From a virus (taxonomy: Duplodnaviria; Caudoviricetes): a stretch of 64,000 bases of DNA. Numbering within the stretch: position 1 is the stretch's first letter; each line of letters begins with the position of its first letter. The translations under genes were made by a program, and so were the position numbers. The notes beneath the pieces are model-generated. The model ran no database searches, was not told where the DNA came from, and was given only the letters and a program-made list of their open reading frames with translations. Positions 22,870 to 56,358 of this stretch are shown here, one piece after another. Where the stretch lies: IMG/VR virus record IMGVR_UViG_3300021431_000075, positions 384,001 through 448,000 of that record; one strand, written 5' to 3'.

Positions 22870-22915
22870 CTGTAGTCTTGAAAATAAATATAGAAAAGCC
22901 TTTTTATTCTCTTTT

Positions 22916-24187
22916 ATGAGTGATTTTTTGTTTCCGGTTGTGAATGAAAGTCTATTGGATAGTGTTGGAGAAGATGAAGTTGATGATTCTGATTATGTCA
23001 ATGATGTCAATTTGATAAATCCTGACGATTATACATATGTTTTCACGTTTAAAGTCAGTGGCATAAATCCATCACAGGCTCATGATGGATATGAGAAGAA
23101 TATGAAAAGATATGTCAAGTTTGTTAATTTGTTGAAAAGAGAACTGGACAATTTCACTGATATTTATGAATTTAGTAATATTGTGTTTTATTCTTATAAT
23201 GGTGATAGTTTGGACGATGAGAAATCAAGAACAATTCATACATATGACAATATTGTGAATGTTTATTCTTCTGATGTTTATTATTCGGGCTATCGTATAG
23301 GAGATTATTATAAAAATTATAAAAATCCAGATCTAAGAGGCGGTTTTGCTTATGAGAGAGTTATCGGTTTCAAGTTTGGTGTAATTAAAGATTATCAATT
23401 TACAAATATTCCGCAGTTTTTCAGATTCTTTACAAGATTGTTCGATATAGTAGACTTTGTACTAATAAATGTGTGGCCGAAAGCAGTTTTGTCAGTTTTT
23501 CGTGAAGAAAATTTGAAGATGTATTTTTCATATGAAGATATTGAAAATTTCAAAAAAAGAGATGTGAAGATTCTGAACAAATTGATAAAGCCGTTTCATG
23601 TGTTTAGTGGAAAGAATCTGAAGAATCAATTGATTATGTATATGAATTATTATGCCGGCAATAACATAAGCGATAATATGATAACTTTGTTAAAGAGGTT
23701 GAAACTTGACAATAAGAAAATCAAGTATAATATTGATTATGAAAACAAATTGTTCGTAGTAGATTATGGTTCCGATAACAGAAGTAATGATTATATATGT
23801 AATTTGAATAAGTTAAAAACATATGTAGAAGAAGCGATGTTCAAAGAGACCGGCATACATGGATTCGGTGTAAAGATGAACAATTTTCCAAATGTGAAGT
23901 CGAAAGATATGAATAGACTTGATGATATAAAAGAATTTTGCAACATATTTGGAACAGAATTTAGAAATGTATATTTTTATTTTAATGAATGTGCGTTTAA
24001 TGGGTTTACAAAAATATCAATACTAAAAAATATAGATACTCACATTAGTGCATATTATGTTTCATTAATTGTTTATTGTACGCCTGATAGCATTGTTAGA
24101 AGACTTAATTTGCCTTCATTTACATATAAAAACAAAACTGATAATGCAATAGCGAGCAAAGGCATATATGTGAGAATTTATAAATGA
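22916..24187 (+). CDS. Late hypothetical protein with VNES...DEVDD leader; AT-rich gene
   Basis: AATAAATA at 22883-22890; N-terminus MSDFLFPVVNESLLDSVGEDEVDD. Confidence 0.8.
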   Translation: MSDFLFPVVNESLLDSVGEDEVDDSDYVNDVNLINPDDYTYVFTFKVSGINPSQAHDGYEKNMKRYVKFVNLLKRELDNFTDIYEFSNIVFYSYNGDSLDDEKSRTIHTYDNIVNVYSSDVYYSGYRIGDYYKNYKNPDLRGGFAYERVIGFKFGVIKDYQFTNIPQFFRFFTRLFDIVDFVLINVWPKAVLSVFREENLKMYFSYEDIENFKKRDVKILNKLIKPFHVFSGKNLKNQLIMYMNYYAGNNISDNMITLLKRLKLDNKKIKYNIDYENKLFVVDYGSDNRSNDYICNLNKLKTYVEEAMFKETGIHGFGVKMNNFPNVKSKDMNRLDDIKEFCNIFGTEFRNVYFYFNECAFNGFTKISILKNIDTHISAYYVSLIVYCTPDSIVRRLNLPSFTYKNKTDNAIASKGIYVRIYK

Positions 24188-24268
24188 AAAGTCATAAATG
24201 CATTTTTTGTATAATAGTTTTTTTAAATCATAAATTTCATTTTGTTTTATTTTTTTAGGATTTGAATT

Positions 24269-24296
24269 TAAACCGGACTGCATTTTTGTAGTATAC
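24269..24296 (+). promoter_or_regulatory. Phage promoter TAAAC-N17-GTATAC upstream of the clamp loader
   Basis: Exact motif and spacing. Confidence 0.8.
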
Positions 24297-24326
24297 TAAA
24301 ATGAGAATTTTTTATAGACTATTAAA

Positions 24327-25289
24327 ATGGCAGAAAATAAGGTATCAGGTCAGTTGTTTACTGAAATGTTCAGACCAAGGACGATTGCGGAATGCATTCT
24401 TTGTCCGAGAGTTAGACAAGAACTTGAAAAGGGAGTGCATAACTCAATCCTCATGTATGGAACAGCAGGAATCGGAAAAACTTCATTGACTCGCTTGCTG
24501 GTTCAGGGACATGATGTTCTTGAGATAAACGCGTCGCTGGAGCGCGGTATTGATACGATTCGTGATGAAGTTGTTGCATTTGCATCAACAGCTTCGATTA
24601 TAACAGGAGAAGATACGTTCAAGATCATTCAGCTCGAGGAGTGTGATAACTTGACGCTTGATGCATGGAAATCATTGCGTTCTGTGATGGAGAAGTATTA
24701 CAAGAACGTGCGATTCGTTGCCAACTGCAATTATGTGGAGAAGATTCCGGAACCTATTCAATCAAGGTTCAACATGATATGCTTGAACCCAATAAATCAG
24801 GAAGAGAGTGAATATCTTTTCAAAGAGTATGTTTCCAGGGTTGGATATATTCTTTCAAAGATGAACATCAAGTTCACGGAAGATACTCTTAAAGAGTTTG
24901 TCAGGAAGTCATTCCCTGACATGCGCTACATTGTCAAGAATATACAGCAGATGCATGTTCGTAAGGTCACTGAACTTTCTTCTGATATGCTGAAGGCTTC
25001 TTATGACTGCTCGCCGCTTTTCCAGATGATATTGTCCGCTCCGAATCCGTGGGAGAACTATAAGAATCTTTCAAACGAGTGGGGAAATAACCCGGAAAGT
25101 GCAATCATTAACATCGCGGAAAATTTTGTTTCGTTTGTGCATGATTCGAACATTGGCTTTGATTCGAAGATTCCGGAACTTATTATTACGATTGCAGAGC
25201 ATCAGAATATGCTATCTACCGCGATAGACAAGTTTATTGTTCTTGCTTCTCTTGTTTTTAAGCTTCAGTTGATAATAAATCGCAGTTAA
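24327..25289 (+). CDS. Sliding-clamp loader AAA+ subunit (T4 gp44/RFC-like)
   Basis: EMFRPRTI, GTAGIGKTS (Walker A), LEECDNL (Walker B-like), PIQSRF, FPDMR. Confidence 0.92.
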   Translation: MAENKVSGQLFTEMFRPRTIAECILCPRVRQELEKGVHNSILMYGTAGIGKTSLTRLLVQGHDVLEINASLERGIDTIRDEVVAFASTASIITGEDTFKIIQLEECDNLTLDAWKSLRSVMEKYYKNVRFVANCNYVEKIPEPIQSRFNMICLNPINQEESEYLFKEYVSRVGYILSKMNIKFTEDTLKEFVRKSFPDMRYIVKNIQQMHVRKVTELSSDMLKASYDCSPLFQMILSAPNPWENYKNLSNEWGNNPESAIINIAENFVSFVHDSNIGFDSKIPELIITIAEHQNMLSTAIDKFIVLASLVFKLQLIINRS

Positions 25290-25302
25290 ACATCATAATT
25301 AC

Positions 25303-26211
25303 ATGAGTGTATATACAACAAGAATAATAGAGGTTAATGTTTCAGAAAGCAAGGGCTATCTGAATGATATTGATGTGTTTCCGGAAGGCATACAGAACGG
25401 AGACATATACACTCTTCCTTATGATAAGATAAAAGACGGTAACAAATATTGCAAGTATGTTGATGGAAAGTGGGAGTTTTTGAAAACCTGTCCACACCAT
25501 TGGACTTTGTTGAAAGCATACATTCCGCGAGGTCCAAGAAAGAAGCAGCAGACTGTTCTTGTTGATGAGTATGATGAAAATCTCAAGCCGACTGGTCGGA
25601 AGATAGAGCAAGCGGTCGGTAGTCCAGACAAAAATGCTTATCTTTTTAAAGATGATGTCGGAAAAGATATATGGTTCAAGATTGAACGTGACTGGTCTAA
25701 CAACGGAGGATATGTTCGTGATAATTATATATCAAAGATGAATAATACTCCAATAACTGGTCGAGGACTTCCATCTGATATTTCTAAAGAGACGAATGCG
25801 TGGCTTGAGGAAGATAAAGCATTAGAATATGGTTATTCATTCACTTGGTGTACTTTGCAAGAATGGTATGATGAGTATGAAAAGGTTCAAGAGCGGATAT
25901 TGAAGAAAATTCAAAATTTGTACACAAAGAAAGAATTTGAATCGTCACAAAAGAAACTTGATTTCATCATAAAGAATCTCGGAAAGGTTCCATCAGACAA
26001 AGATGTAAAGAATATTCTTAAGAATAATAAAAGAAAGTCGGATGATGAGGATTTGTTCGATTTTGATTTCGAGATGGACTGTCTCATTGAAGATGAACTT
26101 CCGGAATTGTGGTCTATTGCTTATGAAATCGGAAGAATTGAAGCATTTGCTGATATGTATGACGAATTAGGAAATAGTGATTATGTTCGTATAATTTATT
26201 ATCTGTCTTAA
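25303..26211 (+). CDS. Hypothetical protein
   Basis: 302-aa ORF in operon. Confidence 0.8.
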   Translation: MSVYTTRIIEVNVSESKGYLNDIDVFPEGIQNGDIYTLPYDKIKDGNKYCKYVDGKWEFLKTCPHHWTLLKAYIPRGPRKKQQTVLVDEYDENLKPTGRKIEQAVGSPDKNAYLFKDDVGKDIWFKIERDWSNNGGYVRDNYISKMNNTPITGRGLPSDISKETNAWLEEDKALEYGYSFTWCTLQEWYDEYEKVQERILKKIQNLYTKKEFESSQKKLDFIIKNLGKVPSDKDVKNILKNNKRKSDDEDLFDFDFEMDCLIEDELPELWSIAYEIGRIEAFADMYDELGNSDYVRIIYYLS

Positions 26212-26223
26212 AAAATAAAAAAG

Positions 26224-27756
26224 ATGGCTTGGAGCAAATATCAAAATGACATATTTGATTATGCATTAAACAATAGCGGTTCATTTTCTATAAAGGCGGT
26301 TGCCGGAAGCGGCAAGACGACGACTCTTGTCGAATGTGCCAAGAGAATCAGTAGTTCGAATCAGAAGTTGAAGATTCTTTTTCTTGCATTCAACAAGATG
26401 ATTGTTGATAAGTTGAAAGAAGAGACAGCCGGAATGAACATCAATTGTAAGACTCTGCATGGTTTCGGGATGGCTGCATTGTGCAAGTCCGGGTTGAAGT
26501 TCAAGTTGAATGAGAAGAAGTGGGGCGCGTATATGAACAAGAAGGTTTTCAACCTGCTCGGTTCTGATTGTCAGATTGATAAGAAAGACATTTTGCCGTA
26601 CAAGTTGAACTGTCTGAAGTTGTTCGATATGTGCAGAATCAATCTTGTCAAGTCCGGAGACTTTGAACACATTCAGGAGATTGCCGGAACATATGGGATT
26701 ATCGGCATAGCAAATGAAGTTCAGGCTGTTTCGAAGATGCTGAAGATATCGACAAACTTGGTCATGTTCAAATCAAAGGAAGGTTTTGAGATTGACTATA
26801 TCGACATGATTACGCTTCCGCTGACTGATACATATAGACAGTTCGTATATAAGTATGACGTTGTCTTTATTGACGAAGCGCAGGACTTGAGTCTTGCACA
26901 GCAGGAGTTGATGCGGCTTGCGGTAGCCCCGAACGGGAAGTTCATATCAGCAGGAGATCCTGCACAGTCGATAACCGCATTTGCAGGAACCTTGATGAAC
27001 TCTTATGACAGGCTTGCAAAACTTGCAGGGAAGGAGCTTCCGCTTTCTGTCAATTATAGATGTGGAAGAACGATTGTTGAGTTGGCGCAGAATATTGTTC
27101 CTGAGATAACTCCATGTGATTTTGCAGAAGAGGGGCAGATTGTTCATCAGACGGACTTGAAGAATGCTCAATACGGAGATATGGTCATATGTAGGAAGAC
27201 GGCTCCGCTTATCGAGCTTGTTCTTAAGTACATGATAGACGGAAACAAGACTGCATTTGTCAAGGGAAACGATATTGCCGAAGATATAAGGAATCTGATT
27301 AACAAGGTTGGTGGCGATGATAACAGTTTTGGACTTCAGTCTTTGTATGATAGACTTGACGATTATAAAGTTAAGATGTATGACAAGTTGATGAAAGGAG
27401 ATGTTACTTCTATTCAGTCTTTTCATAATATAGTCGATAAGATTCATTGTATTCATTTGATAGGAGATCGCTGCTTTTCTGTGTCAGATATATTTGCAAT
27501 GATTGACAAGATTTTTGCAGACAGAGAGAACGGCGATGCAATAGTCATGAGCACGATACACAAGGCGAAAGGTCTTGAAGCAGACAATGTTTTTATTGTG
27601 TGTCCGGAACTTCTTCCGTTTGTGTATGATAAGCAACAGCAGTGGGAATTCGAACAGGAGATGAATCTGAAGTATGTTGCGATTACTCGTGCAAAGAAGA
27701 ATCTTTACTTTGTGGATGTTGAAGAGTCGAAAGTTTCAGAGATTGAGATAAACTAA
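26224..27756 (+). CDS. UvrD/Rep-like SF1 helicase
   Basis: AVAGSGKTT, FIDEAQD, GDPAQSI, VNYRC, STIHKAKGLE, YVAITRAK. Confidence 0.93.
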   Translation: MAWSKYQNDIFDYALNNSGSFSIKAVAGSGKTTTLVECAKRISSSNQKLKILFLAFNKMIVDKLKEETAGMNINCKTLHGFGMAALCKSGLKFKLNEKKWGAYMNKKVFNLLGSDCQIDKKDILPYKLNCLKLFDMCRINLVKSGDFEHIQEIAGTYGIIGIANEVQAVSKMLKISTNLVMFKSKEGFEIDYIDMITLPLTDTYRQFVYKYDVVFIDEAQDLSLAQQELMRLAVAPNGKFISAGDPAQSITAFAGTLMNSYDRLAKLAGKELPLSVNYRCGRTIVELAQNIVPEITPCDFAEEGQIVHQTDLKNAQYGDMVICRKTAPLIELVLKYMIDGNKTAFVKGNDIAEDIRNLINKVGGDDNSFGLQSLYDRLDDYKVKMYDKLMKGDVTSIQSFHNIVDKIHCIHLIGDRCFSVSDIFAMIDKIFADRENGDAIVMSTIHKAKGLEADNVFIVCPELLPFVYDKQQQWEFEQEMNLKYVAITRAKKNLYFVDVEESKVSEIEIN

Positions 27757-27761
27757 ACAAT

Positions 27762-27971
27762 ATGGATGATTCAATAGTTGTAACTTTAGATACAGAAATG
27801 GCAGACTTGATTGTTCATGCTTTGAGTGAGTTTCGCGAGAATTTCTATGAGCAGAGTAGAATGTATAATGAAGAAAACACTGAAAGAGTTTGTCGTACAC
27901 TTTGTATGATTGATAGACTTTGTTATCATTTGAAAATTGAAATTGCGAATAAAAATAAATTAATACAATAA
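27762..27971 (+). CDS. Hypothetical protein
   Basis: 69-aa ORF, TAATG coupling to the next gene. Confidence 0.7.
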   Translation: MDDSIVVTLDTEMADLIVHALSEFRENFYEQSRMYNEENTERVCRTLCMIDRLCYHLKIEIANKNKLIQ

Positions 27972-28399
27972 TGGATAAGATACAAGTTAATCAGTTTGAA
28001 TGTTTCATCGGAAATGAATACATTTCATTTTATATTGATGATGAACAAATAGGAGAGCTTCTTTATACAGTTGGATATTCAAGAGATATTGCTTCCGAAT
28101 ATGGAGACTCGGTTGATGATTTCGATATTTCAATATTGAGAAAGTTTGATTTCACAAAAGAAATTGTCAACATAGAGGATATATTTGTAAATCGAAAGCA
28201 GCAAGGAAAGAAATTGTTCAGGGGTATGCTTGAAGCCGGTATGGAAATTCTTACACAGAAATACACGCAGTTTATTTTAAGAGCATGTAGCGATAATGGT
28301 TTTCCGAACGATAAGTTGTGTGAGATTTATAAGGATGCCGGTTTCATCCCATATCAGGAAACAGAAGAAGACGGAATCATCATGTACAAGATTAATTAA
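27971..28399 (+). CDS. GNAT-family acetyltransferase-like protein
   Basis: IEDIFVNRKQQGKKLFRGML (motif A-like) and LCEIYKDAGF (motif B-like). Confidence 0.65.
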   Translation: MDKIQVNQFECFIGNEYISFYIDDEQIGELLYTVGYSRDIASEYGDSVDDFDISILRKFDFTKEIVNIEDIFVNRKQQGKKLFRGMLEAGMEILTQKYTQFILRACSDNGFPNDKLCEIYKDAGFIPYQETEEDGIIMYKIN

Positions 28400-28434
28400 G
28401 CAAATTAAAGATAAACACGACAAAACAAATCATT

Positions 28435-29397
28435 ATGAACAGCGTTGATGAGAAGTATTTTGGCATTGTAAACAAAGTCAGAAACGAAGGGGTCAAGAAG
28501 ATGACTCGTTCTGGCGAAGTCATCTCAACATTCGGAATCATGGAACACTTTAACTTGAAGGAAGGTCTTCCGATTCTTACGACAAAGAAGGTATTTTCAC
28601 GCGGATGTATTGAAGAGCTTCTCTGGTTTTTGTCCGGAGACACGAACATCAAGTATCTTGTTGACAGGAATGTGCATATCTGGGATGATGATGCATTCCG
28701 TCATTATAACACGATGAGGAATTATTTCAGAAATGCAATGTTCCCGGAGATAACGAAAGAGCAGTTCATAGAAGATGTCAAGAACAAGAAGCGTCATTTC
28801 ATCAGAAGCTACTTTCACGGCTTGCCTGTTCCGACAACATATACGTCCGGAGACTTGGGACCGGTCTATGGCGCGTCATGGCGCAGATTCGGTAGAACTC
28901 ATGTTGACCAGATACAAAATATCATTGATACGTTAAGAACGAACCCTGACGACCGCAGAATGCTGTGTGTTGCTTTCAATCCGGAAGTGCTGGATGAAGT
29001 TGCATTGCCGCCATGTCATGTAGGGTTCCAGTTCTATACGAAACCGACAGAAGACGGAAAGAGAGAACTTAGTTGCTTATGGACACAAAGAAGTGTAGAT
29101 GTTGCACTCGGTTTTCCGTATAACTTATTGTCATATAGTGTGTTGACTCACATGGTTGCACAATGCTGCGATATGGAAGTCGGTGAAGTCATCTGCTCAC
29201 TTGGAGATACTCACATATATATGAACCAGATGGACGGTATCGAAGAGCAGCTTAAGAACGACCCGCATAAGTATGATTTGCCCGTTCTGAAGTTGAATCC
29301 GGAAATCAAGGATATTGACAAGTTCAGAATCGAAGACATTGTTATTGAGAATTATAACTCTTATGGAAAGATTTCATTCCCGTTGAGCGTTGGATGA
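28435..29397 (+). CDS. thyA: Thymidylate synthase
   Basis: PILTTKKV, EELLWFLSG, DLGPVYG, ALPPCH, QRSVDVALGFPYN, DTHIY. Confidence 0.96.
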   Translation: MNSVDEKYFGIVNKVRNEGVKKMTRSGEVISTFGIMEHFNLKEGLPILTTKKVFSRGCIEELLWFLSGDTNIKYLVDRNVHIWDDDAFRHYNTMRNYFRNAMFPEITKEQFIEDVKNKKRHFIRSYFHGLPVPTTYTSGDLGPVYGASWRRFGRTHVDQIQNIIDTLRTNPDDRRMLCVAFNPEVLDEVALPPCHVGFQFYTKPTEDGKRELSCLWTQRSVDVALGFPYNLLSYSVLTHMVAQCCDMEVGEVICSLGDTHIYMNQMDGIEEQLKNDPHKYDLPVLKLNPEIKDIDKFRIEDIVIENYNSYGKISFPLSVG

Positions 29398-29462
29398 TGT
29401 AACTGATTTTAATTTCCGCTGCAATAGACAAGTTGCAATCAAATTCAAATAAGTAGAGAACG

Positions 29463-29615
29463 ATGTGGATAAGTTTTGACAAGCCGAGATGGAAGAACCA
29501 TGAGTGGTCATGTAGCATCTTTCCATATGTTACAATTACGAAGATTTCAAATTTGGTGATTGCTGTACACATCGGATGGCTGTTCTGGTGTTTTACAATT
29601 TCAAATGATTTTTAA
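29463..29615 (+). CDS. Small hydrophobic protein (50 aa, not in ORF track)
   Basis: MWISFDKPRW...LVIAVHIGWLFWCFTISNDF* fills the thyA-dut gap. Confidence 0.5.
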   Translation: MWISFDKPRWKNHEWSCSIFPYVTITKISNLVIAVHIGWLFWCFTISNDF

Positions 29616-29621
29616 TTATAT

Positions 29622-30062
29622 ATGGAAATAAAGATTATCAATAAAAGCAACAATCCGCTGCCGTGTTATCAGACTCCGGGAAGTGCTGGCGCTGATTTGA
29701 GAGCATGGATTGAAGACGGTTCGACTATAGTTTTGGAACCGTTGAAAACCGTACTGGTTCATACAGGTCTTTATATTGAATTGCCGGTCGGTTACGAGGC
29801 AAGAGTTCAGCCACGTTCCGGTCTTGCATTGAAGCATCAGATTACGGTTCTGAACAGTCCGGGTTGTATTGATGCAGATTACCGCGGAGAGATTGGAATC
29901 ATTCTAATCAACTTGTCAGACAAGCCGTTCGAAATCAATAATGGAGACAGAGTTGCGCAGATGATTATTTCAAAAGTCGAGACTGTTCGGTTCAATCTTG
30001 TTGAAGAACTTGATAAGACAGAACGTGTTGATGGCGGTTTTGGTCATACAGGTATCAAATAA
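29622..30062 (+). CDS. dut: dUTPase
   Basis: [39 protein letters not shown]. Confidence 0.97.
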
Positions 30063-30072
30063 GTCTATTAAA

Positions 30073-30516
30073 ATGAGAAAGATAAAAACAAATATCAAAT
30101 TTTTTGACATCAAGTTCGACATTCAAGACAAATTGACAAAATGCACGATGAGCATTTCTGCAGATTTGGTTAGAGTCGAGTTGATAGCAAACAGTTTGAC
30201 AAATCTGTTTGTCATGAAGCATCTTGATAAACTTGGAATTTCGGTTGAAGGAACGAAATTGCGGTTCTCTGTTTCCGCTTATTCTAAATGCTGCGAAGGA
30301 GACGAATATAACGAGATTAAAGGTAGACTTTTGGCACATGACAAAGCGCAGTTGAAGGCAATCACGAAAATAAACAATTTTTGTAAGTGGTGGTATAAAA
30401 ACTATTTGGTCAAGTTCGGTCTTGAAAATTACGATACGTATATGTCTAAGATTGCGCTAACGCATAACAGAGTTTATAGTTGCATTGTGACTGAAGAGTC
30501 TGGACATTTAAAATAA
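30073..30516 (+). CDS. Hypothetical phage protein
   Basis: ORF 29998-30516; ATG 30073 after the dut stop preferred. Confidence 0.75.
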   Translation: MRKIKTNIKFFDIKFDIQDKLTKCTMSISADLVRVELIANSLTNLFVMKHLDKLGISVEGTKLRFSVSAYSKCCEGDEYNEIKGRLLAHDKAQLKAITKINNFCKWWYKNYLVKFGLENYDTYMSKIALTHNRVYSCIVTEESGHLK

Positions 30517-30520
30517 CTAA

Positions 30521-31180: not shown

Positions 31181-31183
31181 AAA

Positions 31184-31396
31184 ATGAACAAGAGAATTGC
31201 AAAAAAGGTTTTGAACGAGAACGGACCGCATTACGACTGGTACTACAGAAATGGACTCATTTCATTGGCTCCTGTCCATCCGGAGTTATATTTCAGAGCA
31301 TGCAGACGCTTTCACCAGAAGCCGTACTATGATGCGAAATGGCTTTCTGATATCCAGAAATGGAGAAAAGAACACCCAGTTAAAACAAAAAGATAA
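31184..31396 (+). CDS. Hypothetical protein
   Basis: 70-aa ORF beginning MNKRIAKK. Confidence 0.7.
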   Translation: MNKRIAKKVLNENGPHYDWYYRNGLISLAPVHPELYFRACRRFHQKPYYDAKWLSDIQKWRKEHPVKTKR

Positions 31397-31408
31397 CCAA
31401 CTTATCAA

Positions 31409-31630
31409 ATGAGCAAACAAGATTGTATTAAGATGACCGGAATGGTCGTTCAGGACAAGTCGAATTCGATATTCGATGTCGAACTTGATAACGGCATGAC
31501 TATCACGGCGACTTTGTCCGGAAAGATTAGAATGAATAATATAAGAATACTTGTCGGAGATAAGGTCGATGTCGAGCTGTCTATGTATGACTTGACAAGA
31601 GGACGAATCACATTCCGACACAAAAACTAA
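31409..31630 (+). CDS. infA: Translation initiation factor IF-1
   Basis: FDVELDNG...[37 protein letters not shown]. Confidence 0.95.
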
Positions 31631-31635
31631 TTGTT

Positions 31636-44263: not shown

Positions 44264-44267
44264 TCGT

Positions 44268-46193
44268 CTATATGTATGAGATGATGTTTCCTTTATTGTC
44301 GATTTCGAATGACTGGTTGTCTAATACGACCTCCGCTGTTCCTCTTTCGTTGAACTCATAGCAGTAGTCCATGTCGTTTTTCAGCAGAAAGTTTCCGTCA
44401 ATGTCTATGTAGTTCCATTTCTTGTTGCTTTTTTTCTGTACGTTTATGAAACCGTTCCTTAATATTCCCAAGTTTTGAAACCATTCTTCTGACATCAACG
44501 AACCGTCTGATTTCAAGATATTCGAACTGTTTGATTTGAACACGGATGCGATTCCGTCTTTCGAGAACTCGGAAACGGAGTCGAAGTATTCATTGGAAAT
44601 CAGATTGCCTTGAGTGTCTATGAATGCATATTTATAATATGTTTTTAAATACACTTTCGCAAAACCGTTCACAAAAGGCCAGCAACTGTTGAAATCATTG
44701 TTTAAGCTTTTTGAATCATCTAATGGATACAGGAAAGTGCCATCCTGTTTTATGTAATTGAATGTCCCATTATTAAAACGGACATGCGCGAAACCGCAAC
44801 TGAATGAACTTGCGGTTTGGAACCATTCGTTGTTATCATATAGCAGTTTTCCATCTTTTCCTATGAAGTTGTATCCGTTTGATATGCTATGCCTGTTTGT
44901 TCTGCAAACAAGCCCGAATCCTTCATGGAATGGCTTGCAATCTATCAGTGCCAAGTTGTTATTTATCAAGAAAGTGCCATCTGACTTGATGTACGAGTGA
45001 TACTGGTTCCTGAGCATGACAGATGCTATATCTTCTGAGAAGTCATCAAGTCTATAGATTGTTTCTGGAAGTTGTGTATATTTTCCAGTAGTGTCGATGA
45101 AGCCGATTTCACTGCCATACTTCTTAAACACTGTTGCATAACCGTTCTTGAATTCGAATGCGGAGTTGAAATATTCTGTACATAAGAGTTTTCCGGTTTT
45201 CAGGTTCAGATAGTTTTTCTTATTTTCATCATCTTGGTCTGCCACGACCATGAACCCCTCTGATATTTTATCATGTTCACAAGCAGAGAAAGTTTTTTCT
45301 GTTATAGGTTTTCCGGAAGTGTCTATGACTATATTTCTGTTATATGTGTCTGATATTACAGCGATTCCGTTATTGAAGTATGTAGCGTCTGTGTACCACT
45401 TGTCAAGTAGGTAGTTTCCGCTTGTGTCGATGTAGTTGTATTTTCCCAAGCGTCCGACAAGCGAGTAACCGCTTGACGTGAAGTTTATTAAACCGTTGTT
45501 GAACTTGTCTTTTGTGAGGAAACTTCCGTCTTTCTTGACGATTCTTTCTGTAAACATATTATTGAACTCGTCATCGGAAGTTTCTTTTGAGTACAACGAA
45601 TAAAGCGGTGTGCTCTTGTTCAGGCAGAATAGCAGGTTGTACTTGATGAGGGAATGAAGCATGGATTTGAGAATGTCTTCATTTGAAACCGAATAGTCGT
45701 AGTTGCTGTAGAAATTATAGAATTCATCATTCAGTTCAAGCGAGTGCGACATTTCTTGATGCTTTGCTGTGCGGTGAAGATAGCAGACTATCTTTCCGGT
45801 ATCGTTTGTTATTATAAACTTGGATACTGCTGTCTTTTTAATGATTGCACGGATTGTCTTGACCAGTGTGTCATTCAGATTGTCGATGCCATATGTTGAT
45901 GATGTGAAAGATAATCCGACGCTTTTGCTGTTTTCCGTTACATTGATTTCCGGTTTGACGAATGCTTCTATTCGATTGCATTCTTGCTCGTTCGATAGAA
46001 CCGAGTTGATTTTTTCTGTGATAGATGTCATGATACTCCAGACGCTTACCGTATTCGACGTGAATTCAATCTGTATGTTATACGGATATGAAATTGTGTC
46101 ATCAGTAACTTCGTCCGGGTCTATGGTAGAGAGGATATTGTCACTTTCGTTTATGTATAATTCGTCGTTTATCAACATATTGTATAATGGCAT
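44268..46193 (-). CDS. WG-repeat (beta-repeat) protein with INES...DEVTD leader, late
   Basis: Repeated YNYIDTSG / GFIDTTG / FKNGYA / FSEDIA units; minus-strand AATAAATA at 46210-46217. Confidence 0.82.
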   Translation of the reverse strand: MPLYNMLINDELYINESDNILSTIDPDEVTDDTISYPYNIQIEFTSNTVSVWSIMTSITEKINSVLSNEQECNRIEAFVKPEINVTENSKSVGLSFTSSTYGIDNLNDTLVKTIRAIIKKTAVSKFIITNDTGKIVCYLHRTAKHQEMSHSLELNDEFYNFYSNYDYSVSNEDILKSMLHSLIKYNLLFCLNKSTPLYSLYSKETSDDEFNNMFTERIVKKDGSFLTKDKFNNGLINFTSSGYSLVGRLGKYNYIDTSGNYLLDKWYTDATYFNNGIAVISDTYNRNIVIDTSGKPITEKTFSACEHDKISEGFMVVADQDDENKKNYLNLKTGKLLCTEYFNSAFEFKNGYATVFKKYGSEIGFIDTTGKYTQLPETIYRLDDFSEDIASVMLRNQYHSYIKSDGTFLINNNLALIDCKPFHEGFGLVCRTNRHSISNGYNFIGKDGKLLYDNNEWFQTASSFSCGFAHVRFNNGTFNYIKQDGTFLYPLDDSKSLNNDFNSCWPFVNGFAKVYLKTYYKYAFIDTQGNLISNEYFDSVSEFSKDGIASVFKSNSSNILKSDGSLMSEEWFQNLGILRNGFINVQKKSNKKWNYIDIDGNFLLKNDMDYCYEFNERGTAEVVLDNQSFEIDNKGNIISYI

Positions 46194-46225
46194 ATGAACT
46201 ATTATACGGTATTTATTTTCATCTT

Positions 46226-46233: not shown

Positions 46234-46284
46234 TATCAAAATGATTTTGCAAAGATAGCAAAATTAAATTATTCATACAAGATA

Positions 46285-49568: not shown

Positions 49569-49590
49569 CAAATACAATCATTTTCAAATA

Positions 49591-49625
49591 AAATCTACTC
49601 TTTCTGTCAAGAGTAGATTTTTTTT
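49591..49625 (+). terminator. Intrinsic terminator after the R-M gene
   Basis: AAATCTACTCTT-TCTGTC-AAGAGTAGATTT plus T-run. Confidence 0.8.
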
Positions 49626-49716
49626 GTTTTTATGTTCATTTGACAAAACAAAGATGATTGATTTAGTCTTTGTTTGTTAAATAATGTTAAAAATGATTAT
49701 TTTTCTTTTTATTTTC

Positions 49717-49747
49717 TTTGCTGTGTATAAAATGTTGTGTATATTTG
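49717..49747 (+). promoter_or_regulatory. Bacteroidota sigma-A-type (early) promoter
   Basis: TTTG-N19-TATATTTG, same geometry as 1117-1147. Confidence 0.78.
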
Positions 49748-49787
49748 CATCAAACATTCAAAGTCAATAACGTAAAGCAACAAAATT

Positions 49788-50633
49788 ATGGCACAGACAA
49801 TTTTATATGACGCTTCGATGGGTTTCTTCCTATTCTTCAGAGGCGGTTATGACAAAGAAACGAAGAAAGGTCTCGACCCTTATGAGTTTGATGTAGATCC
49901 GATTTCTACATACAAAGGATATGCGCCATCGTATCCAGTAAAGCAGGGTTACATGATTCATGCAAATACATCAGATGAAAGATTTAGAGTTGGCAAGTTC
50001 TTCTTCGGAGAGTCGTTTGAACTTGAATCCCGTCAAGATTATGTTGCATCTGGTGATTATATGTTATGTTTTGACAAGAATCTCAGAACTGTTTTCTATA
50101 AGAAAGGTGATTCTGCACCAGAACGAGTCACGAAATATTGCAAGACGCGCAACAAGTTCTATAAAGAGTGGATCAAACCATTTTGTGAGTATCAGCCGGA
50201 GTTCATTCCTCCATGTGATATAACAGGTTATTCATTCAAGAAAGGACAGCAATATCTTGTATGTTCGGGTTCTTCATTCAATTATTATGAAATATTGCCG
50301 GAGATTGCACGTCTGGAAAGTTTCAAAGAGGTTCAATTCAGGCCGGAAATCAGCGAATATCTTTGGAATCTTGAGCCGATAGACCTGTCGCAATCTTGGG
50401 ACATGTCTGATGAAGAAAAAGCAGAGTTTGAGCGTAAGTTCGCTGCAATAGATGAAGAACGTAGAAAAGCTGCTGAAGAACTTGAAGAAAGAAAAGCAAC
50501 TCCAGGGTTCTGTGATGTTTGCGGAGAACCGGCAGAATATGTAGAAGATCCATACTACTACGAAATGTACGGAAAGCGTTGTATGCGCTGGTTATGCCCG
50601 GCTTGCTATCGTGATTCTTGTAATGACGTTTAA
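49788..50633 (+). CDS. Early hypothetical protein with C-terminal zinc finger
   Basis: CDVCG...CPAC motif after a coiled segment. Confidence 0.8.
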   Translation: MAQTILYDASMGFFLFFRGGYDKETKKGLDPYEFDVDPISTYKGYAPSYPVKQGYMIHANTSDERFRVGKFFFGESFELESRQDYVASGDYMLCFDKNLRTVFYKKGDSAPERVTKYCKTRNKFYKEWIKPFCEYQPEFIPPCDITGYSFKKGQQYLVCSGSSFNYYEILPEIARLESFKEVQFRPEISEYLWNLEPIDLSQSWDMSDEEKAEFERKFAAIDEERRKAAEELEERKATPGFCDVCGEPAEYVEDPYYYEMYGKRCMRWLCPACYRDSCNDV

Positions 50634-50725
50634 CTAAAAAATATTTTAATAAAATTCTACTCTTTTTTAAACTATTTGTTTAATCGAGAGTAGAATTTTT
50701 TGCATTTAAATATGCACATTCAATA

Positions 50726-50971
50726 ATGAAGACAACTATTCAATTGGACATAGAGATTTCAGATGCATTTCTTGACAAGTGGAATACAGGAATGCTCGGT
50801 TTCTTTATGGACTCTTGCAATAATGATGATGAGGCATTGAAGAAAGTTAAAGAGAACTCATATGAGAATACTCTTGCATCTTGGATAGAAAGACAGATTA
50901 CCGACTATCACCAAAACTCAATAACAAGTTGCAAGGCTTCAATCATTAAAACAGACACTGACAGCGAATGA
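50726..50971 (+). CDS. Hypothetical protein
   Basis: 81-aa ORF, ATGA coupling to the GT10 gene. Confidence 0.7.
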   Translation: MKTTIQLDIEISDAFLDKWNTGMLGFFMDSCNNDDEALKKVKENSYENTLASWIERQITDYHQNSITSCKASIIKTDTDSE

Positions 50972-51942
50972 GAACGATAAACTTGGCATTCGAGCATTTG
51001 TATGATGACTTTGATGTTACGAATAACATATTCACAGACTTGTTGAGCAACTATTTCAATATTTGTATTTGTTCATACAAGACAAAGAGTCCTGAAGATA
51101 TAGACTTGCTAATATATTCAAGTTTTTATACATTGGAGAACAGGAATCTCATAGAGGATCATTATGCTGATGTGAAGAAGTTGTTCATATCCGGTGAGAA
51201 CGAGAGTCCGAACTTTAACATTTGTGACTTTGCTATGACTTGCAATGATATAACGTTCGGCAATCGTCATTTCAGGTTGCCTTATTATGCAATGTCATAT
51301 TATAATAAGGAACTACCGGAACGAACATGGGATGACAGCCTGTTTGACAGGAAATTCTGTTCTTTTGTTGTTAGCAATTATAATCTTTCTAACCCGGCAA
51401 GGTTCAACGTGTTCCAGATGCTCAATAATGAGTATAGCAAGGTTGATTCAGGCGGCATGGCTTTCAACAATATCGGAACATCCGGTGTTAAAGACAAGCA
51501 CGAGTTCATTTCCCAGTACAAGTTCAACATAGCAGGAGAGAACTCGTTCGTTGATGACTATGTCACCGAGAAGATAATGGATGCGTTTGCAGCGCGCAGC
51601 ATTCCGATTTATATAGGAACTGATAAGATATTCAGGGATTTCAACAAGGAAGCGTTCATATACTTGGATAACTATGACTATGAGAATCTTCTGAACAAGG
51701 TCCGCAAGGTCAACGAGGATAAGGAACTTTACAAGCATATGATGACAGTTCCGATATTCAACAGGGACGGTGTCATGGACGAGTACATAGATGGATTGTC
51801 GGAGTATCTTTATAACATTGTAGAGAACTGGCATCCTTATGATCACAATGGCGGAAGAATATACGGACAGAGGATGATGTTTAAGTCGCTGTTTGATATT
51901 TTGCTGCAGTTCGAGAAAAGTGATTTGGTTCAATTTTCTTAA
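50968..51942 (+). CDS. Glycosyltransferase family 10 (alpha-1,3/4-fucosyltransferase-like)
   Basis: ISGENESP, RKFCSFVVSN, VDSGG, FISQYKFNIAGENS..DYVTEKIMDAFAARSIPIYIG (GT10 signature). Confidence 0.9.
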   Translation: MRTINLAFEHLYDDFDVTNNIFTDLLSNYFNICICSYKTKSPEDIDLLIYSSFYTLENRNLIEDHYADVKKLFISGENESPNFNICDFAMTCNDITFGNRHFRLPYYAMSYYNKELPERTWDDSLFDRKFCSFVVSNYNLSNPARFNVFQMLNNEYSKVDSGGMAFNNIGTSGVKDKHEFISQYKFNIAGENSFVDDYVTEKIMDAFAARSIPIYIGTDKIFRDFNKEAFIYLDNYDYENLLNKVRKVNEDKELYKHMMTVPIFNRDGVMDEYIDGLSEYLYNIVENWHPYDHNGGRIYGQRMMFKSLFDILLQFEKSDLVQFS

Positions 51943-51981
51943 TTATTGTTAAACGAATGATTTTTATTATCAGATTTCTTT

Positions 51982-52009
51982 TTTGGAATCGATAAAATCT
52001 ATATCTTTG
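51982..52009 (+). promoter_or_regulatory. Probable Bacteroidota-type early promoter
   Basis: TATCTTTG -7 box at 52002-52009; upstream TTTG has a shorter (16-nt) spacer. Confidence 0.55.
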
Positions 52010-52032
52010 CACATAAAATCAATAGATTTATT

Positions 52033-52245
52033 ATGATTATATCTGACGATAACCCCAAATTGTATGAAAACTTTGTTCTCAATAAGGAGAACTATGACAA
52101 GATAGCGGAGCATGTTGACGAGTTCAACAAGGATGCATATGAGAAGTTCGGAATCAAGTACGGCATCGCGATGTTCAAGGACCGCATCATTGTTGACGAT
52201 TTGTGCAAGTTGATGTGGGTTGAATTGATTGACAGTATTTTTTAA
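52033..52245 (+). CDS. Hypothetical protein
   Basis: 70-aa ORF after the promoter. Confidence 0.7.
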   Translation: MIISDDNPKLYENFVLNKENYDKIAEHVDEFNKDAYEKFGIKYGIAMFKDRIIVDDLCKLMWVELIDSIF

Positions 52246-52257
52246 AATAATAAAGCA

Positions 52258-53400
52258 ATGAATGAGATAGTTAATGTGAATGATTCAAGCACTGGTGCTA
52301 ATATGCTTGTTCGTTACTCGGAAGAGTTGAATTCTCTTACCGAGAATGACAAGGAGAAATACCGTGCTCTTACAAGTCAGATTGATGTTGACAATCCCCG
52401 TTCGGTGTCTTCGTTCGGATATGATATTAACATGACTCTGGCAAATCAGGCAGATGTTTTGCTGGAAAAGTCGAATGCGAACAAGGCGTCTGAATTCAAC
52501 AAGCTGACAAGCGATTTGTTGATACAAATCAAAGATATTGGCTTGGCAACAGAAGAAGATGAAAAAGACAACAAGTATTTTGATTGGATGAAGTCTCTTC
52601 CTTTTGTCAATCGTTTTGTCAAGGTTGCCACTGATGTTAAAATCAAGAATGCCAGTCCGAAAGAGAACGTGGACGAAGTCAAGAAGAAGATTCAGTCGTT
52701 GTCTGTTCTTGCACAGAAGGAGATTGCGGTTCTTGATGAAATGTACAAAAACATGGTGAGTTATAAGAAAATGAACCGTGAAAGAATCATAGCATTGATG
52801 CTTCTTGAGAAAGAGGCTAAAGAATCTATTGAAAAACTCGAATCAAGCGGAGAGTGGATCGACGCTTATGAGATGCGAAACAAGAAGAAATTCTTGAACG
52901 CGCTGTCTAAACGCATAACGGATATGAGCATGATTGATGTCGAGTTTGATACGACTCTCCATCAGATTGATGCGATTTGCGGCAACTATGATACAATAGT
53001 TTATAATGCGCAAGTCATTGTCGGACAGGTTATCCCGATATGGAAGAATCATATCGTCATCGGCAACGAGCAGAGCACGCAGAAACTTTGCGCTGACATG
53101 GAAGATAAGGTTCGGACGTCTGCAAACGACATGCTTAAGAAGAATGCTGAAATGCTGAAACAGAATAGCATCGAGATTGCCAAGATGAACGAGGCTCCTG
53201 TCTTTGATATTGACACTCTGAAGAAATCGACAGAGACTTTGATTGAGACAATCAAGGAAGTTGATAACATTCACAAAAAGGGTCAGGAATCAAGGGCTGG
53301 CATCGTGAAGGAAGTCGAGAATATCAAGCAGAGACTGTTAACGGCAATAGACGAAAACACTGCAAAAAATCTGATTGGAAGTGATTCCCATTTTATCTAA
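52258..53400 (+). CDS. telA: TelA/KlaA-like toxic-anion resistance protein
   Basis: All-helical 380 aa; SVSSFG, LPFVNRF, VIPIWKN, NDMLKKNAEMLKQNSIEIAK, DIDTLKKS. Confidence 0.8.
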   Translation: MNEIVNVNDSSTGANMLVRYSEELNSLTENDKEKYRALTSQIDVDNPRSVSSFGYDINMTLANQADVLLEKSNANKASEFNKLTSDLLIQIKDIGLATEEDEKDNKYFDWMKSLPFVNRFVKVATDVKIKNASPKENVDEVKKKIQSLSVLAQKEIAVLDEMYKNMVSYKKMNRERIIALMLLEKEAKESIEKLESSGEWIDAYEMRNKKKFLNALSKRITDMSMIDVEFDTTLHQIDAICGNYDTIVYNAQVIVGQVIPIWKNHIVIGNEQSTQKLCADMEDKVRTSANDMLKKNAEMLKQNSIEIAKMNEAPVFDIDTLKKSTETLIETIKEVDNIHKKGQESRAGIVKEVENIKQRLLTAIDENTAKNLIGSDSHFI

Positions 53401-54274
53401 GATAGCAAACAGGTTTCGTTCTCGAACAAAGGATGAAGAGTCTGGAGATGATGTTTCTTACACCATCAAGATTGATGATGTCGGTTATATAACGACAAAC
53501 ACGTCATCAATTCAGATAAAAGACAGCAAGCTCGGGATTGTAAATTATGTTTATGAAGATACTTATGTATATGACTTGTCAGACGAGTCGGACTTGGAAG
53601 ATTTCAAGAAAGAAACTGCAAATGACGGCGTGTCCGATTATAGTATCTGTATCGAAACACTCAACGGCTACATTAGCAAGTATAGGGATTTCTATATAGG
53701 TCACTTCGACGAACATGTCTTGTTGCAATCCGAATTGCGCGGAATATGCATCATCTTGAAGAATTTTCTGTTCTTTCTTGACGAGATGCCGGTTGAAGCG
53801 GTTGCAAGATTGAACATGTTGTCTTCTCTTATATCAGACACTGACAATAACTATGTCATAGAGAGTCGTGCTCATGCGGATGGAAAGATGTATCTGAAGT
53901 TGTTCAAGGATTCGTATGACAAGTTAATTCATGAGCGATTCAACAAGAAGGTTATAGAAACAAAGAGAGCGGCGAAGAATGCCGCGAAGAAGTCATGCAA
54001 GTTCAAGTATTATGTAGGAGACCGATATTTCGTATGGAACGTTGATACGCGGACAAATGAGTTAATCGAGAGTGTGTACGAGGTCAAGAAAACGATATAC
54101 ACGATTGGAGCGAATCAAGTGAATGTCGTTGTTATGAAGTTTATTTCGGGAGTTCGTAGAAACATGAGACCGGTTAGTCCGTTGGACTGCAATGCTTTCC
54201 ATATAAAGTACGAGCCGGACTTGTTCATATTTCCGATGAATGCGAGACTTATCAAGAAGAGCGTTAAATTGTAA
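53375..54274 (+). CDS. Hypothetical protein
   Basis: About 299-aa ORF; start uncertain. Confidence 0.7.
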   Translation: MEVIPILSKIANRFRSRTKDEESGDDVSYTIKIDDVGYITTNTSSIQIKDSKLGIVNYVYEDTYVYDLSDESDLEDFKKETANDGVSDYSICIETLNGYISKYRDFYIGHFDEHVLLQSELRGICIILKNFLFFLDEMPVEAVARLNMLSSLISDTDNNYVIESRAHADGKMYLKLFKDSYDKLIHERFNKKVIETKRAAKNAAKKSCKFKYYVGDRYFVWNVDTRTNELIESVYEVKKTIYTIGANQVNVVVMKFISGVRRNMRPVSPLDCNAFHIKYEPDLFIFPMNARLIKKSVKL

Positions 54275-54298
54275 TAATGATTAAAAGAAAGAAACAAA

Positions 54299-54724
54299 AT
54301 GTATACCAAGATATTAATGCTGCATGATAACACGACGAATGACGTTATCACGGTGAATACAGATTTTCTATGTTATGCGTATACAAATGAATATGGAGTG
54401 ACATCTCTGAAGTTGTCATGTCTTAGCGCAGATGAGAATACGGTTCTTGTCAAGGAAAGTGTTGCGAAGATATATAGTCAGGTAGACGACAAGTTCATTT
54501 GTCTCCATAATTCGGATGATAATAGTCTTGCCATATTTAGCATCAAAGATTTCATATATTCATATTATGACCGGACTAATAATATTGGAGCGGTTGTTAT
54601 GAATATCGACGATGATTATCCATGTTTTGAAGTCAATGAGACTCCACACAAGATATGTCGAAAGATAATCGAAAAGGATAAAAAAGATGAAGAAACGAAC
54701 AATGATGAAATGAAAAAGGAATAG
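54299..54724 (+). CDS. Hypothetical protein with an internally duplicated small beta-domain
   Basis: ILMLHDN...VKESVAKIY repeated as FICLHNS...VNETPHKIC. Confidence 0.75.
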   Translation: MYTKILMLHDNTTNDVITVNTDFLCYAYTNEYGVTSLKLSCLSADENTVLVKESVAKIYSQVDDKFICLHNSDDNSLAIFSIKDFIYSYYDRTNNIGAVVMNIDDDYPCFEVNETPHKICRKIIEKDKKDEETNNDEMKKE

Positions 54725-54725
54725 C

Positions 54726-55050
54726 GTTAGAAGTTCATCTTTCTAACAGAAAGTTTGGGCGGTATTCCCGATTTTGGTTTATGCAAGTTCTGGATATTTG
54801 TGCCATTATTTACTATTATATTTACATTTCTTGGGCATGAAATTCAGACAAAAAGCACCTTATGGGTTTATACAATTCTATCGCTTTGTGTTACCAGTCC
54901 GACTTGGGTTGCTTTGCAGGACGGAGATTTGCGATTACAGCCGGGAAGTTATACCCGTCACTGACGAATGTCCCTGCTGTCTGGCTGTATGAACATTTTG
55001 AAGACTTGTGAAGTTCATCCAATGTTAATGGGTTGGTAGCACAATTATAC
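54726..55050 (+). ncRNA. Candidate structured RNA (unassigned)
   Basis: Several stems, e.g. 54789-54804/54834-54848 and 54936-54944/54981-54989; no convincing ORF. Confidence 0.35.
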
Positions 55051-55051
55051 A

Positions 55052-55090
55052 AGAGACCGCTGTCTGTTTGGCTTGGCAGCGGTCTCTTTT
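55052..55090. terminator. Bidirectional terminator
   Basis: AGAGACCGCTGTC...GGCAGCGGTCTCT plus T-run. Confidence 0.8.
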
Positions 55091-55104
55091 TCTTATTGAT
55101 GATT

Positions 55105-56250
55105 TTAGTCAAATAATGATTTTTCGCATTCAAACTCAACTCCGTACTTGCTCGGTGTGATTTGTGAGAGCTGGTTGTTTCGTTCATCCACAAGAATGAC
55201 ATTTGCTGTGAACTTCTCTCCATTCACTTGCATCTCGAATGTTCCGAAGAATGGGTCGTTGTTGTCTGCGAAGTCGGAAAGTGTCTCTGTTAGTCCGGGT
55301 TCTGTTCTGATGAACGCGTTGACAACAAGATAGTCTGTGTTCTTGTGCCTTTCTGCTTTTATATCGTTCTTCTTGATGCTTGATATAAAAGCCTGATATA
55401 TGAAGTCAATCATTCTTCCGCTTTCATACGGCATGTTCGGCTGCTTGTTGCATTCCATGAAGATGTTCTTGTATATCAGGTTGATTTCTTCAGATGAATC
55501 ATCTGGCTTGATTTCCCGCTTCTTTGTGTTCGATAGAATGAAGTTGAGGTCGAATTCTTTGAACCTCATTCTTCCGAGCCTGATTGCAATAGATGTTATG
55601 TTTCCTCTGTTCGGTTTTGACGCGAACCTGCTATGAAACTCCGTCGGCGTGTACTTGTTGCTTGTATCGGACTTGTAGATGATGCTGTGCATCTTCTTAA
55701 GCGGAGTTTCGTTGAATATCATCTTTCCGTTGCTTGCCGGCCACAAGTTAAACGAGTCTTCATCAGAGAGGAAAGACAATTTATGGAAGTACATGTCTTG
55801 GAAGTCGCTATTGATGAAATGCATTCTGTAAATCTTGTACATGTCTTTCAAGAACTGGTCATAGTCATAGTTTTCATCAGGAACTATCTTGAACTTTACG
55901 CTGAACATAAGAGTCATCGGAGTCGTTCCGTCCGGCGTTTTCTCCTGCAACTCCTTGTTGATTGTCCTGATGTTGAACGCGTCATAGTTGTCATACATCG
56001 TTGTCTTGTCATAGTTCTTGTGAGCATAGTCATATTTTCTGGTTATGTATATGCATGGCTCGGCATTGTCGGTCATGAAATATAACTTGTTATATAGAGA
56101 GACTATGTATCTGACAATGACTTCAGGCTCTATTTCATCTTCATCGATCATGAACGAGTCAACCAGCTGGTAAAATACTTGTTCATCCGTATTGTCAGTA
56201 ACTTCATCTGTCTCTATCTTTGAGAATAACGACTCGTTTAAATTCAACAT
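55105..56250 (-). CDS. Late hypothetical protein with LNES...DEVTD leader
   Basis: MLNLNESLFSKIETDEVTD; minus-strand GATAAATA at 56275-56282. Confidence 0.8.
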   Translation of the reverse strand: MLNLNESLFSKIETDEVTDNTDEQVFYQLVDSFMIDEDEIEPEVIVRYIVSLYNKLYFMTDNAEPCIYITRKYDYAHKNYDKTTMYDNYDAFNIRTINKELQEKTPDGTTPMTLMFSVKFKIVPDENYDYDQFLKDMYKIYRMHFINSDFQDMYFHKLSFLSDEDSFNLWPASNGKMIFNETPLKKMHSIIYKSDTSNKYTPTEFHSRFASKPNRGNITSIAIRLGRMRFKEFDLNFILSNTKKREIKPDDSSEEINLIYKNIFMECNKQPNMPYESGRMIDFIYQAFISSIKKNDIKAERHKNTDYLVVNAFIRTEPGLTETLSDFADNNDPFFGTFEMQVNGEKFTANVILVDERNNQLSQITPSKYGVEFECEKSLFD

Positions 56251-56358
56251 AAAATACAACAATTGCAATTTTTCTATTTATCAAACGTTTGTTTTGATGC
56301 TAATTTCTTGATAATTGTCAAGAAAACAATCATTTTTTGCATTTTTGTGTTGTCAGTT

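Follow-up and report, generated by a model that had tools for sequence, protein, structure and literature searches.

An N-terminal leader common to three dispersed genes in a 64,000-nt (nucleotide) stretch of virus record IMGVR_UViG_3300021431_000075 (G000:C1:384001-448000, referred to here as the window, where G000 is the full 673,114-bp record and genes are named by their window positions) belongs to a family of 55 genes in the same phage genome. The leader is supported as a selected peptide module standing on bodies without detectable similarity. It is proposed, as a reading that we hold to be somewhat better than an even bet, that it constitutes a bipartite tag for loading into the prohead and cleavage there, with its acidic part retained on the mature protein. 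Near-identical leaders on genes 22916, 44268-46193 and 55105-56250 (also called 56250) had been pointed out in a first-pass annotation of the window, which read them as a portable promoter-plus-leader module routing diverse payloads into the head; that observation is confirmed by the present analysis and its interpretation is partly supported.

The extent of the family was determined with a hidden Markov model (HMM) of the leader, which finds 52-55 N-terminal copies in the whole 673-kb genome, depending on the search, a number well outside anything expected by chance; the 55 leader genes cover 98,292 nt, or 14.6% of the genome. All 55 copies lie inside the first 80 residues, and the whole-genome search gave no convincing internal copy, which answers the doubt, raised with the first description of the motif, that it might be equally common at internal positions. 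Most copies stand in tandem arrays (11-27, 52-96, 108-111, 208-226, 288-294, 302-326 and 362-366 kb of the genome), and three of the five dispersed copies are those in the window. The consensus is x(2-20)-[LIVM]-N-E-[STND]-L-L-D-x-V-x-x-D-E-V-x-D, with the Glu of N-E placed 3-21 residues (median 12) from the initiator Met; this Glu is the sole invariant residue in an unconstrained alignment of 49 leaders (A1). When positions are numbered from a presumed cut after this Glu, the most informative ones are P3-P1 (L-N-E) together with P1'-P13' (S-L-L-D-x-V-[ED]-x-D-E-V-x-D), and information is low before P3; P4-P11 carry little information, and in five proteins, including 56250, the part ahead of the presumed cut is 2-5 residues long. 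P3 is L, I, M or V in 51/51 pattern-matched site-bearing sequences and P2 is N in 39 of them, a set that includes one spurious MQET match in a copy with a host-type promoter. Glu occupies P1 of the probable cutting site in 50 of the 55 leader proteins, among them all three of the window, where P3-P1 read V-N-E (22916), I-N-E (44268-46193) and L-N-E (55105-56250). The conserved residues are encoded by many synonymous codons (Ser, for example, by AGC, TCG, AGT, TCC and TCT), which argues that selection acts on the peptide, at the protein level, and not on the DNA.

Among the 55 bodies, 48 are WG-repeat paralogues; the other seven, 22916 and 56250 among them, have nothing in common outside the leader in sequence or profile comparisons. 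The body of 44268-46193 matches Pfam PF14903 WG_beta_rep (E 3.8e-13; 49.6 bits, cut-off 25.6), while genes 22916 and 56250 match no Pfam or PHROG family. The three bodies had been called unrelated, and for sequences and profiles this holds: neither BLAST nor HMM nor HHalign relates 22916 or 56250 to one another or to the WG family beyond the leader region, and similarity is limited to ~37-53 columns that correspond to the leader and the first strand (BLAST, the HMM of the WG N-domain, and HHalign). Even between paralogues, overall identity of bodies and leaders is 12-28%. Where the description needs correcting is in the structure models, which allow a common ferredoxin-like first domain, and thus 22916 and the WG bodies may be extremely diverged relatives through a common unit of leader plus first domain. 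It could then be assumed that the leader is not portable at all and is the conserved N-terminus of one hyper-diverged family, built of the leader and a ferredoxin-like first domain, in which the C-terminal parts were exchanged. We regard this explanation as possible and tentative; it bears on portability alone and is compatible with a function in prohead cargo or in docking. It draws on the confident ferredoxin-like fold of the first domain of 44268-46193 (residues 34-167, predicted local distance difference test score (pLDDT) 87.5, best Z 8.1), on the model of 22916, which opens with the same strand-helix order, on the overlapping ferredoxin-like or palm chains drawn by residues 32-228 of 22916 (8oz7, 7n5d, 6lyp, 9e62, 6wi5 and 7n7s, Z 5-7.1), and on HHalign matches that extend a few columns into the first strand. 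However, the 22916 model has a mean pLDDT of 60.7, with values of 30-68 in the first-domain part, the Z values fall in the range that the tool calls common, and profile similarity ends at ~50 columns. Foldseek and VIA returned no clear match for the 22916 model, the Atlas model of 56250 (pLDDT 0.36) gave no usable fold hit, and a BFVD search with the WG N-domain returned nothing below E 1e-3. A further objection to a non-portable leader comes from four WG-type bodies that carry a second, basic leader, MRKQNKRALYESIMRDVAKVVKRRLNE; leaders have thus been exchanged on related bodies, which is independent evidence for modularity. The basic leader was also seen apart from these four, as it heads at least a dozen late-promoter genes (e.g., G000 46085, 301885, 303076, 322404, 561285, 562151, 660035, 660738 and 661207), and it holds L-Y-E-S and R-L-N-E, sites of the same type as in the acidic leader.

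T4 prohead protease gp21, which was invoked in the first-pass annotation, has a counterpart in this genome. A protease-scaffold protein matches phrog_207, the family of T4 gp21 (E 2e-22), as well as PF03420 in precomputed results, and aligns with T4 gp21 in BLASTP (E 3e-8, 30% identity over 115 aa (amino acids)), including the catalytic His and Ser motifs (GELDHP with GELNHP, VSSRACG with VSSRGLG). A six-frame search of the genome with Pfam S77 was negative for the protease, and given the positive PHROG, BLAST and precomputed Pfam results this is treated as a filter miss. No other gene has as many [LIVM]NE[STND] motifs as the protease-scaffold, with five in 612 aa where ~0.2 would be expected. 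Among 21 homologues of ~50% identity, conservation of two sites just past the protease domain, V-x-E-S (173-176) and Y-L-N-E-S (188-192), is 90% or higher, up to full invariance; both sites are also kept in Prevotella phage Lak-A1. The Gp23-family capsid protein has K-L-N-E/D (the slash marks the presumed cut) ~57 residues from its MKIK start, at the propeptide boundary, and the site is identical in Lak-A1. The T4 capsid protein is cut after L-T-E at residue 65, and the conserved segment that follows the site aligns between the two capsid proteins.

The second line of evidence concerns promoters. An (A/G)ATAAATA element had been reported 16-25 nt upstream of the three window genes, and it is found there, with cores 25, 16 and 24 nt before the ATGs; the window holds 18 copies of RATAAATA against 8.7 expected, a count reached in 0 of 100 shuffles. 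The full late element, approximately ATAAATATCTTATAAT, occurs in exact form before the heads of arrays and many other genes, mostly 14-41 nt before the ATG. In the genome, 174 of the 262 copies of the ATAAATA core fall in the non-coding 9%, and the core also stands upstream of the portal, protease-scaffold and sheath genes, in agreement with the late class to which the leader genes had been assigned; a homologue of the gp55-family late sigma factor is encoded as well (E 1.2e-10). However, a promoter core of its own was found for only 23 of the 55 leader genes, the remainder following at 0-47 nt inside operon-like arrays, and the idea of a combined promoter-plus-leader module was therefore overstated, although the leader itself occurs on bodies without detectable similarity. 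Contigs from RNA libraries, which give no transcript starts or timing, span leader genes.

A natural contrast is provided by paralogues behind TAnnTTTG, which we take to be the Bacteroidota promoter element. In the array at 17-27 kb, I-F-E-S and L-S-E-S are found where the late promoter is exact, whereas three genes behind TAnnTTTG and a further one co-transcribed with one of these have Lys, Arg or no residue at P1; all four keep L-L-D-x-V-x-x-D-E-V-x-D. Overall, Glu is present at P1 in 0/4 host-type copies and in 50/51 others (Fisher p 1.5e-5). The loss of Glu with retention of the acidic part ties Glu to late expression and makes the acidic part common to both promoter classes, which fits the earlier suggestion that DEVxD is kept after cleavage. 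The enrichment of the site extends beyond the leader family: [LIVM][NY]E[STNDG] in the first 40 residues is found in 15/102 late-promoter genes vs 20/486 other genes (p 2e-4). In the window, 44268-46193 has both a host-type and a late-type element upstream and may have two promoters, with expression both early and late.

Taken as a mechanism, the leader would mark late proteins of this relative of the Lak megaphages with an N-terminal tag in two parts. The first, a short variable stretch that closes with [LIVM]-N-E, would be recognized and cut by the T4 gp21-type protease-scaffold that the phage itself encodes, and the second, S-L-L-D-x-V-x-x-D-E-V-x-D, would lie after the cut and stay on the mature protein. 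Tagged proteins would be synthesized late from T4-like ATAAATA promoters, enter the prohead, be trimmed by the protease and be carried in the capsid, presumably to be delivered with the DNA. The three genes of the window would be stand-alone late units in an otherwise early, plus-strand region of replication and nucleotide metabolism; 22916, for instance, forms a late-promoter island between metK and a clamp-loader gene. From the protease sites and the promoter association we infer cleavage, packaging and delivery, and the leader proteins that possess the probable cutting site are probably loaded into the phage head.

Several facts weigh against this mechanism. The phage is uncultivated and known from its sequence alone. 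The conserved part of the leader lies after the presumed cut, whereas the targeting residues of T4 precede it, and the late-array member at genome 59049-60602 has Asn at P1. Internal proteins of T4 are basic and the tag is acidic, and a cargo of 55 proteins of 380-780 aa would be very large. Retention of the acidic part in the early-type paralogues points to a role of this part beyond prohead loading alone. Lak-A1, the nearest named relative, has no significant leader copy, and the leader system is thus not a conserved part of Lak head assembly.

The T4 internal proteins are the closest known parallel. Otherwise diverse, they have in common just a cleavable N-terminal capsid targeting sequence (PMC3012670, PMC9026906), which in IPI, IPII, IPIII and Alt is removed by the prohead protease gp21 (Mullaney and Black 1996, reviewed in PMC9026906, PMC3012670). 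As in T4, a short N-terminal tag that ends in hydrophobic-x-Glu (median 12 residues here, 10 in T4) stands on otherwise dissimilar late proteins of a phage with a gp21-family protease, a Gp23-family capsid and a T4-type portal, and the motif is also present at the capsid propeptide boundary and in the scaffold, here as sites seen in the sequence. The analogy drawn in the first-pass annotation breaks down at one defining feature of the T4 sequence: the conserved 13 residues, presumably those that bear the address, are acidic and follow the presumed cut, while the part ahead of it is variable and sometimes as short as 2-5 residues. The leader has no sequence similarity to MKTYQEFIAE, and it lacks the feature by which the T4 determinants are residues 4 and 7 of the removed 10-residue sequence. 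There are 55 carriers (14.6% of the genome) instead of a handful, the protease is fused to a scaffold-like tail, and packaging is a prediction here. A second parallel is offered by the giant phages phiKZ, 201phi2-1 and SPN3US, in which propeptides of inner-body or ejection proteins are cut after Glu by gp175/gp245-type proteases (PMC5694885, PMC10052503, PMC9026906). Common to both systems are many head-internal proteins, including paralogue families, that are trimmed (here by prediction) after Glu at a short motif, and redundant sites in scaffold-like proteins. However, the phiKZ-type motif is S/A/G-x-E, its propeptides are long and without a shared leader, and its cleavage was measured by mass spectrometry, whereas the L-N-E with a fixed acidic tail described here is known from sequences only.

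Cargo-loading peptides of encapsulins are short, portable and terminal, are retained on the cargo and dock it inside an HK97-fold shell. They offer a possible analogy for the retained acidic part, although they are usually C-terminal, have no link to a protease site and differ in sequence from the leader. A bolder proposal, which is speculative and to which we give clearly less credence than to the bipartite tag as such, can be built on this analogy. The retained S-L-L-D-x-V-x-x-D-E-V-x-D would itself be the address, a cargo-loading peptide for a T4-type head, and the L-N-E stub would only release or activate the cargo. About 50 different binding proteins would then be packed and injected, and the uncleavable copies, expressed early under host-type promoters, would open a second delivery route for the same arsenal.

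Alternatively, the leader might act outside the capsid interior as a docking or assembly peptide for one common partner, such as a phage hub, an external site on the virion or a host target; L-N-E would then merely cap the binding segment, and late timing would reflect decoration of the virion or release at lysis. Docking is favoured by the position of the best-conserved part behind the presumed cut and by its retention in the Glu-less host-promoter paralogues, by the WG repeats, which are binding-type beta repeats, and by the models, in which the leader is a flexible extension before a folded domain. We nevertheless consider docking rather unlikely, since it leaves unexplained why Glu is retained in the late copies and lost only in the host-promoter copies, and why L-N-E-S recurs at conserved sites of the protease-scaffold and at the capsid propeptide boundary. 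That the leader directs export or secretion, out of the infected cell or into the envelope, is improbable: the N-terminal position, the sharing by many binding-type repeat proteins and the Bacteroidota host would suit it, but the leader is strongly acidic and has neither a hydrophobic core nor a lipobox, unlike the true signal peptides MKKILFCIVALVAMSMSFASC and MRKSKVFFMIAALMLAITATA in the window, and we know of no secretion signal that resembles it. Least credible is a process at the DNA or RNA level without peptide function (gene conversion, a recombination handle or translation control), which is favoured by the tandem arrays, where conversion is plausible, and by a ~320-nt element upstream of gene 58953 that is duplicated before a leader-array gene (window 58631-58949 and genome 74833-75154, 91% identity) but is largely refuted by the synonymous codon variation and also opposed by the low overall identity of the paralogues and by orthologues on other contigs that keep the peptide.

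By its portal protein, which is of T4 type (PF07230, E 4e-67) and 57% identical to those of Prevotella phages Lak-A1/B/C (29-33% to those of uncultured phages of 462-735 kb), the phage is a relative of the Lak gut megaphages. Its record is a single sequence with terminal repeats, a GC (guanine plus cytosine) fraction of 0.41 and a coding density of 91% under table 11, and its DNA is present in sequencing runs from sheep, cattle, goat and other gut metagenomes. The published horse Lak phage is distinct from it, with a length of 660 kb, an alternative code and ~29% GC (PMC8346664). No match was obtained when 24 kb of the window was compared by megablast with GenBank phages or when IMG/VR was searched with the protease domain, and no paper was found on the leader or on WG-repeat families in Lak-type phages. 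The leader scan was extended to relatives, as had been suggested in the first-pass annotation. A search with the leader profile of Lak-A1, Lak-B4 and three 462-735-kb phages, made without a positive control, gave no match, and hmmsearch of the full Lak-A1 genome (TAG read as Gln) gave 0 hits at E<0.01, vs 52 in the phage studied, with three weak x-[YM]-E-S-L-F-D-D N-termini as the only resemblance. The expansion of the leader family is thus specific to the lineage of the 673-kb phage. In a database search with the leader profile, the matches listed are close relatives only.

A set of 1.84 billion proteins contains just three representative relatives of gene 22916, at 89, 45 and 42% identity (43 and 38% in a separate alignment), and N-E-S-L-x-D...E-V-x-D is kept in all three. 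A strict DNA pattern search of IMG/VR led to one syntenic contig, L057, where metK and the clamp-loader gene again flank the 22916 orthologue, which is preceded by a terminator and by AATAAATATCTTATAG at the matching place. For gene 56250, two relatives other than itself were found (58 and 55% identity), and L-N-E-S-L...E-V-T-D-N is invariant in them.

If the bipartite tag is correct, it would help explain what purpose the additional DNA and very large capsids of megaphages serve. A simple rule for listing head cargo in uncultivated Lak-type phages would follow, i.e., a late promoter together with hydrophobic-N-E-S near the N-terminus, as would a compact tag that might be tried for the loading of foreign proteins into T4-type heads. 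Since only the host-promoter copies have lost Glu, one recombinant enzyme would suffice for a direct test of the protease-site idea.

Positions of the leader genes, their promoters and related features (window coordinates unless G000 is given; a slash marks the presumed cut)
Feature	Position	Strand	Details
Leader gene 22916, 423 aa, non-WG body	22916-24187	+	Starts MSDFLFPVVNESLLDSVGEDEVDD
Leader of 22916	residues 1-24		V-N-E/S-L-L-D-S-V-G-E-D-E-V-D-D
Late-type core AATAAATA	22883-22890	+	25 nt before ATG 22916; after hairpin and T-run terminator following metK
WG-repeat leader gene, 641 aa	44268-46193	-	N-terminal region ...YINESDNILSTIDPDEVTDD
Leader of 44268-46193			I-N-E/S-(DN)-I-L-S-T-I-D-P-D-E-V-T-D-D, then ferredoxin-like domain (~34-167), then WG beta repeats
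Late-type core AATAAATA	46210-46217	-	Ends 16 nt before ATG 46193
16-mer ATAAATACCGTATAAT including core AATAAATA	46201-46216	-	Upstream of gene 44268-46193
Host-type (Bacteroidota -7-like) motif TATCTTTG	46250-46257	-	56 nt before ATG 46193
Leader gene 56250, 381 aa from ATG, non-WG body	55105-56250	-	Starts MLNLNESLFSKIETDEVTDN
Leader of 56250			M-L-N-L-N-E/S-L-F-S-K-I-E-T-D-E-V-T-D-N; five residues ahead of presumed cut
Late-type core GATAAATA	56275-56282	-	24 nt before ATG 56250
Gene 58953, 228 aa	58953-59639	+	Starts MSLFDEIEFEDD; M-S-L-F-D-E-I-E-F-E-D-D
Promoter variant TAAAATATCTTATAAT	58932-58947	+	5 nt before ATG 58953; 3' end of repeated structured element
Protease-scaffold, 612 aa	G000:624491-626329	-	~170-residue T4 gp21-type protease, acidic/basic linker, conserved tail

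Gene 58953 had been listed as resembling the part of the leader after N-E-S. The resemblance is weak: its N-terminus fits P1'-P10' only, the leader HMM scores it at E 4.2, and ~0.6 such N-terminal chance hits are expected genome-wide; among genes outside the family, it alone shows the SL[LFM]D.[VIL][ED] core within residues 1-30. It is a possible leader remnant that starts at the presumed post-cleavage Ser, a weak member of the family at best. Ahead of 58953 lies a structured repeat of ~235 nt, which follows closely on a GATAAATA core and has the promoter variant TAAAATATCTTATAAT as its end. It is present in three copies of 91% and 73% identity (window 58700-58947 (+), G000 74833-75154 (-) and 614768-615008 (+)), for which RNAalifold predicts 71 pairs, six of them with compensatory changes; no Rfam family matches it. 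The repeat may form a long 5' leader, as RNA-library contigs bridge it into gene 58953.

Two further peptidases were noted. An ordinary ClpP (PF00574, E 7e-61) is encoded at 57201-57944 (+), between 56250 and 58953 and beside thymidine kinase; it was rejected as the leader-processing enzyme, being an ordinary ClpP in a genome with a gp21-type protease, and nothing was found to connect it with the leader. A papain-family cysteine peptidase of 219 aa (PF00112, E 3.7e-7; phrog_16701, E 1e-12) is encoded outside the window, at L005:4475-5134 (+), i.e., G000 658475-659134, directly downstream of the T4-type portal and behind an exact ATAAATATCTTATAAT, and is an unusual neighbour for a portal. In the otherwise plus-strand early region of the window, an open reading frame of 2169 aa (6554-13063, -) is preceded at 44 nt by a degenerate late-type element that differs from the 16-mer at 4 positions.

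An abundant RNA was also observed at window 54712-55098 (+), in the gap between 54299-54724 and the 3' end of leader gene 55105-56250; it matches no Rfam family. In four metatranscriptome runs, which belong to three studies, it is represented by a contig of ~330 nt, from 54712/54721 to 55036/55048 (only 54722-54902 in X19), with depths of 56, 27, 19.5 and 38 vs ~1-6 in the flanks. A contig in which 55048 is joined back to 54721 could reflect circularity, a tandem arrangement or an assembly artefact. For the plus strand, the folding energy is -123.6 kcal/mol (z -5.3), and a hairpin and a T-run stand at its end.

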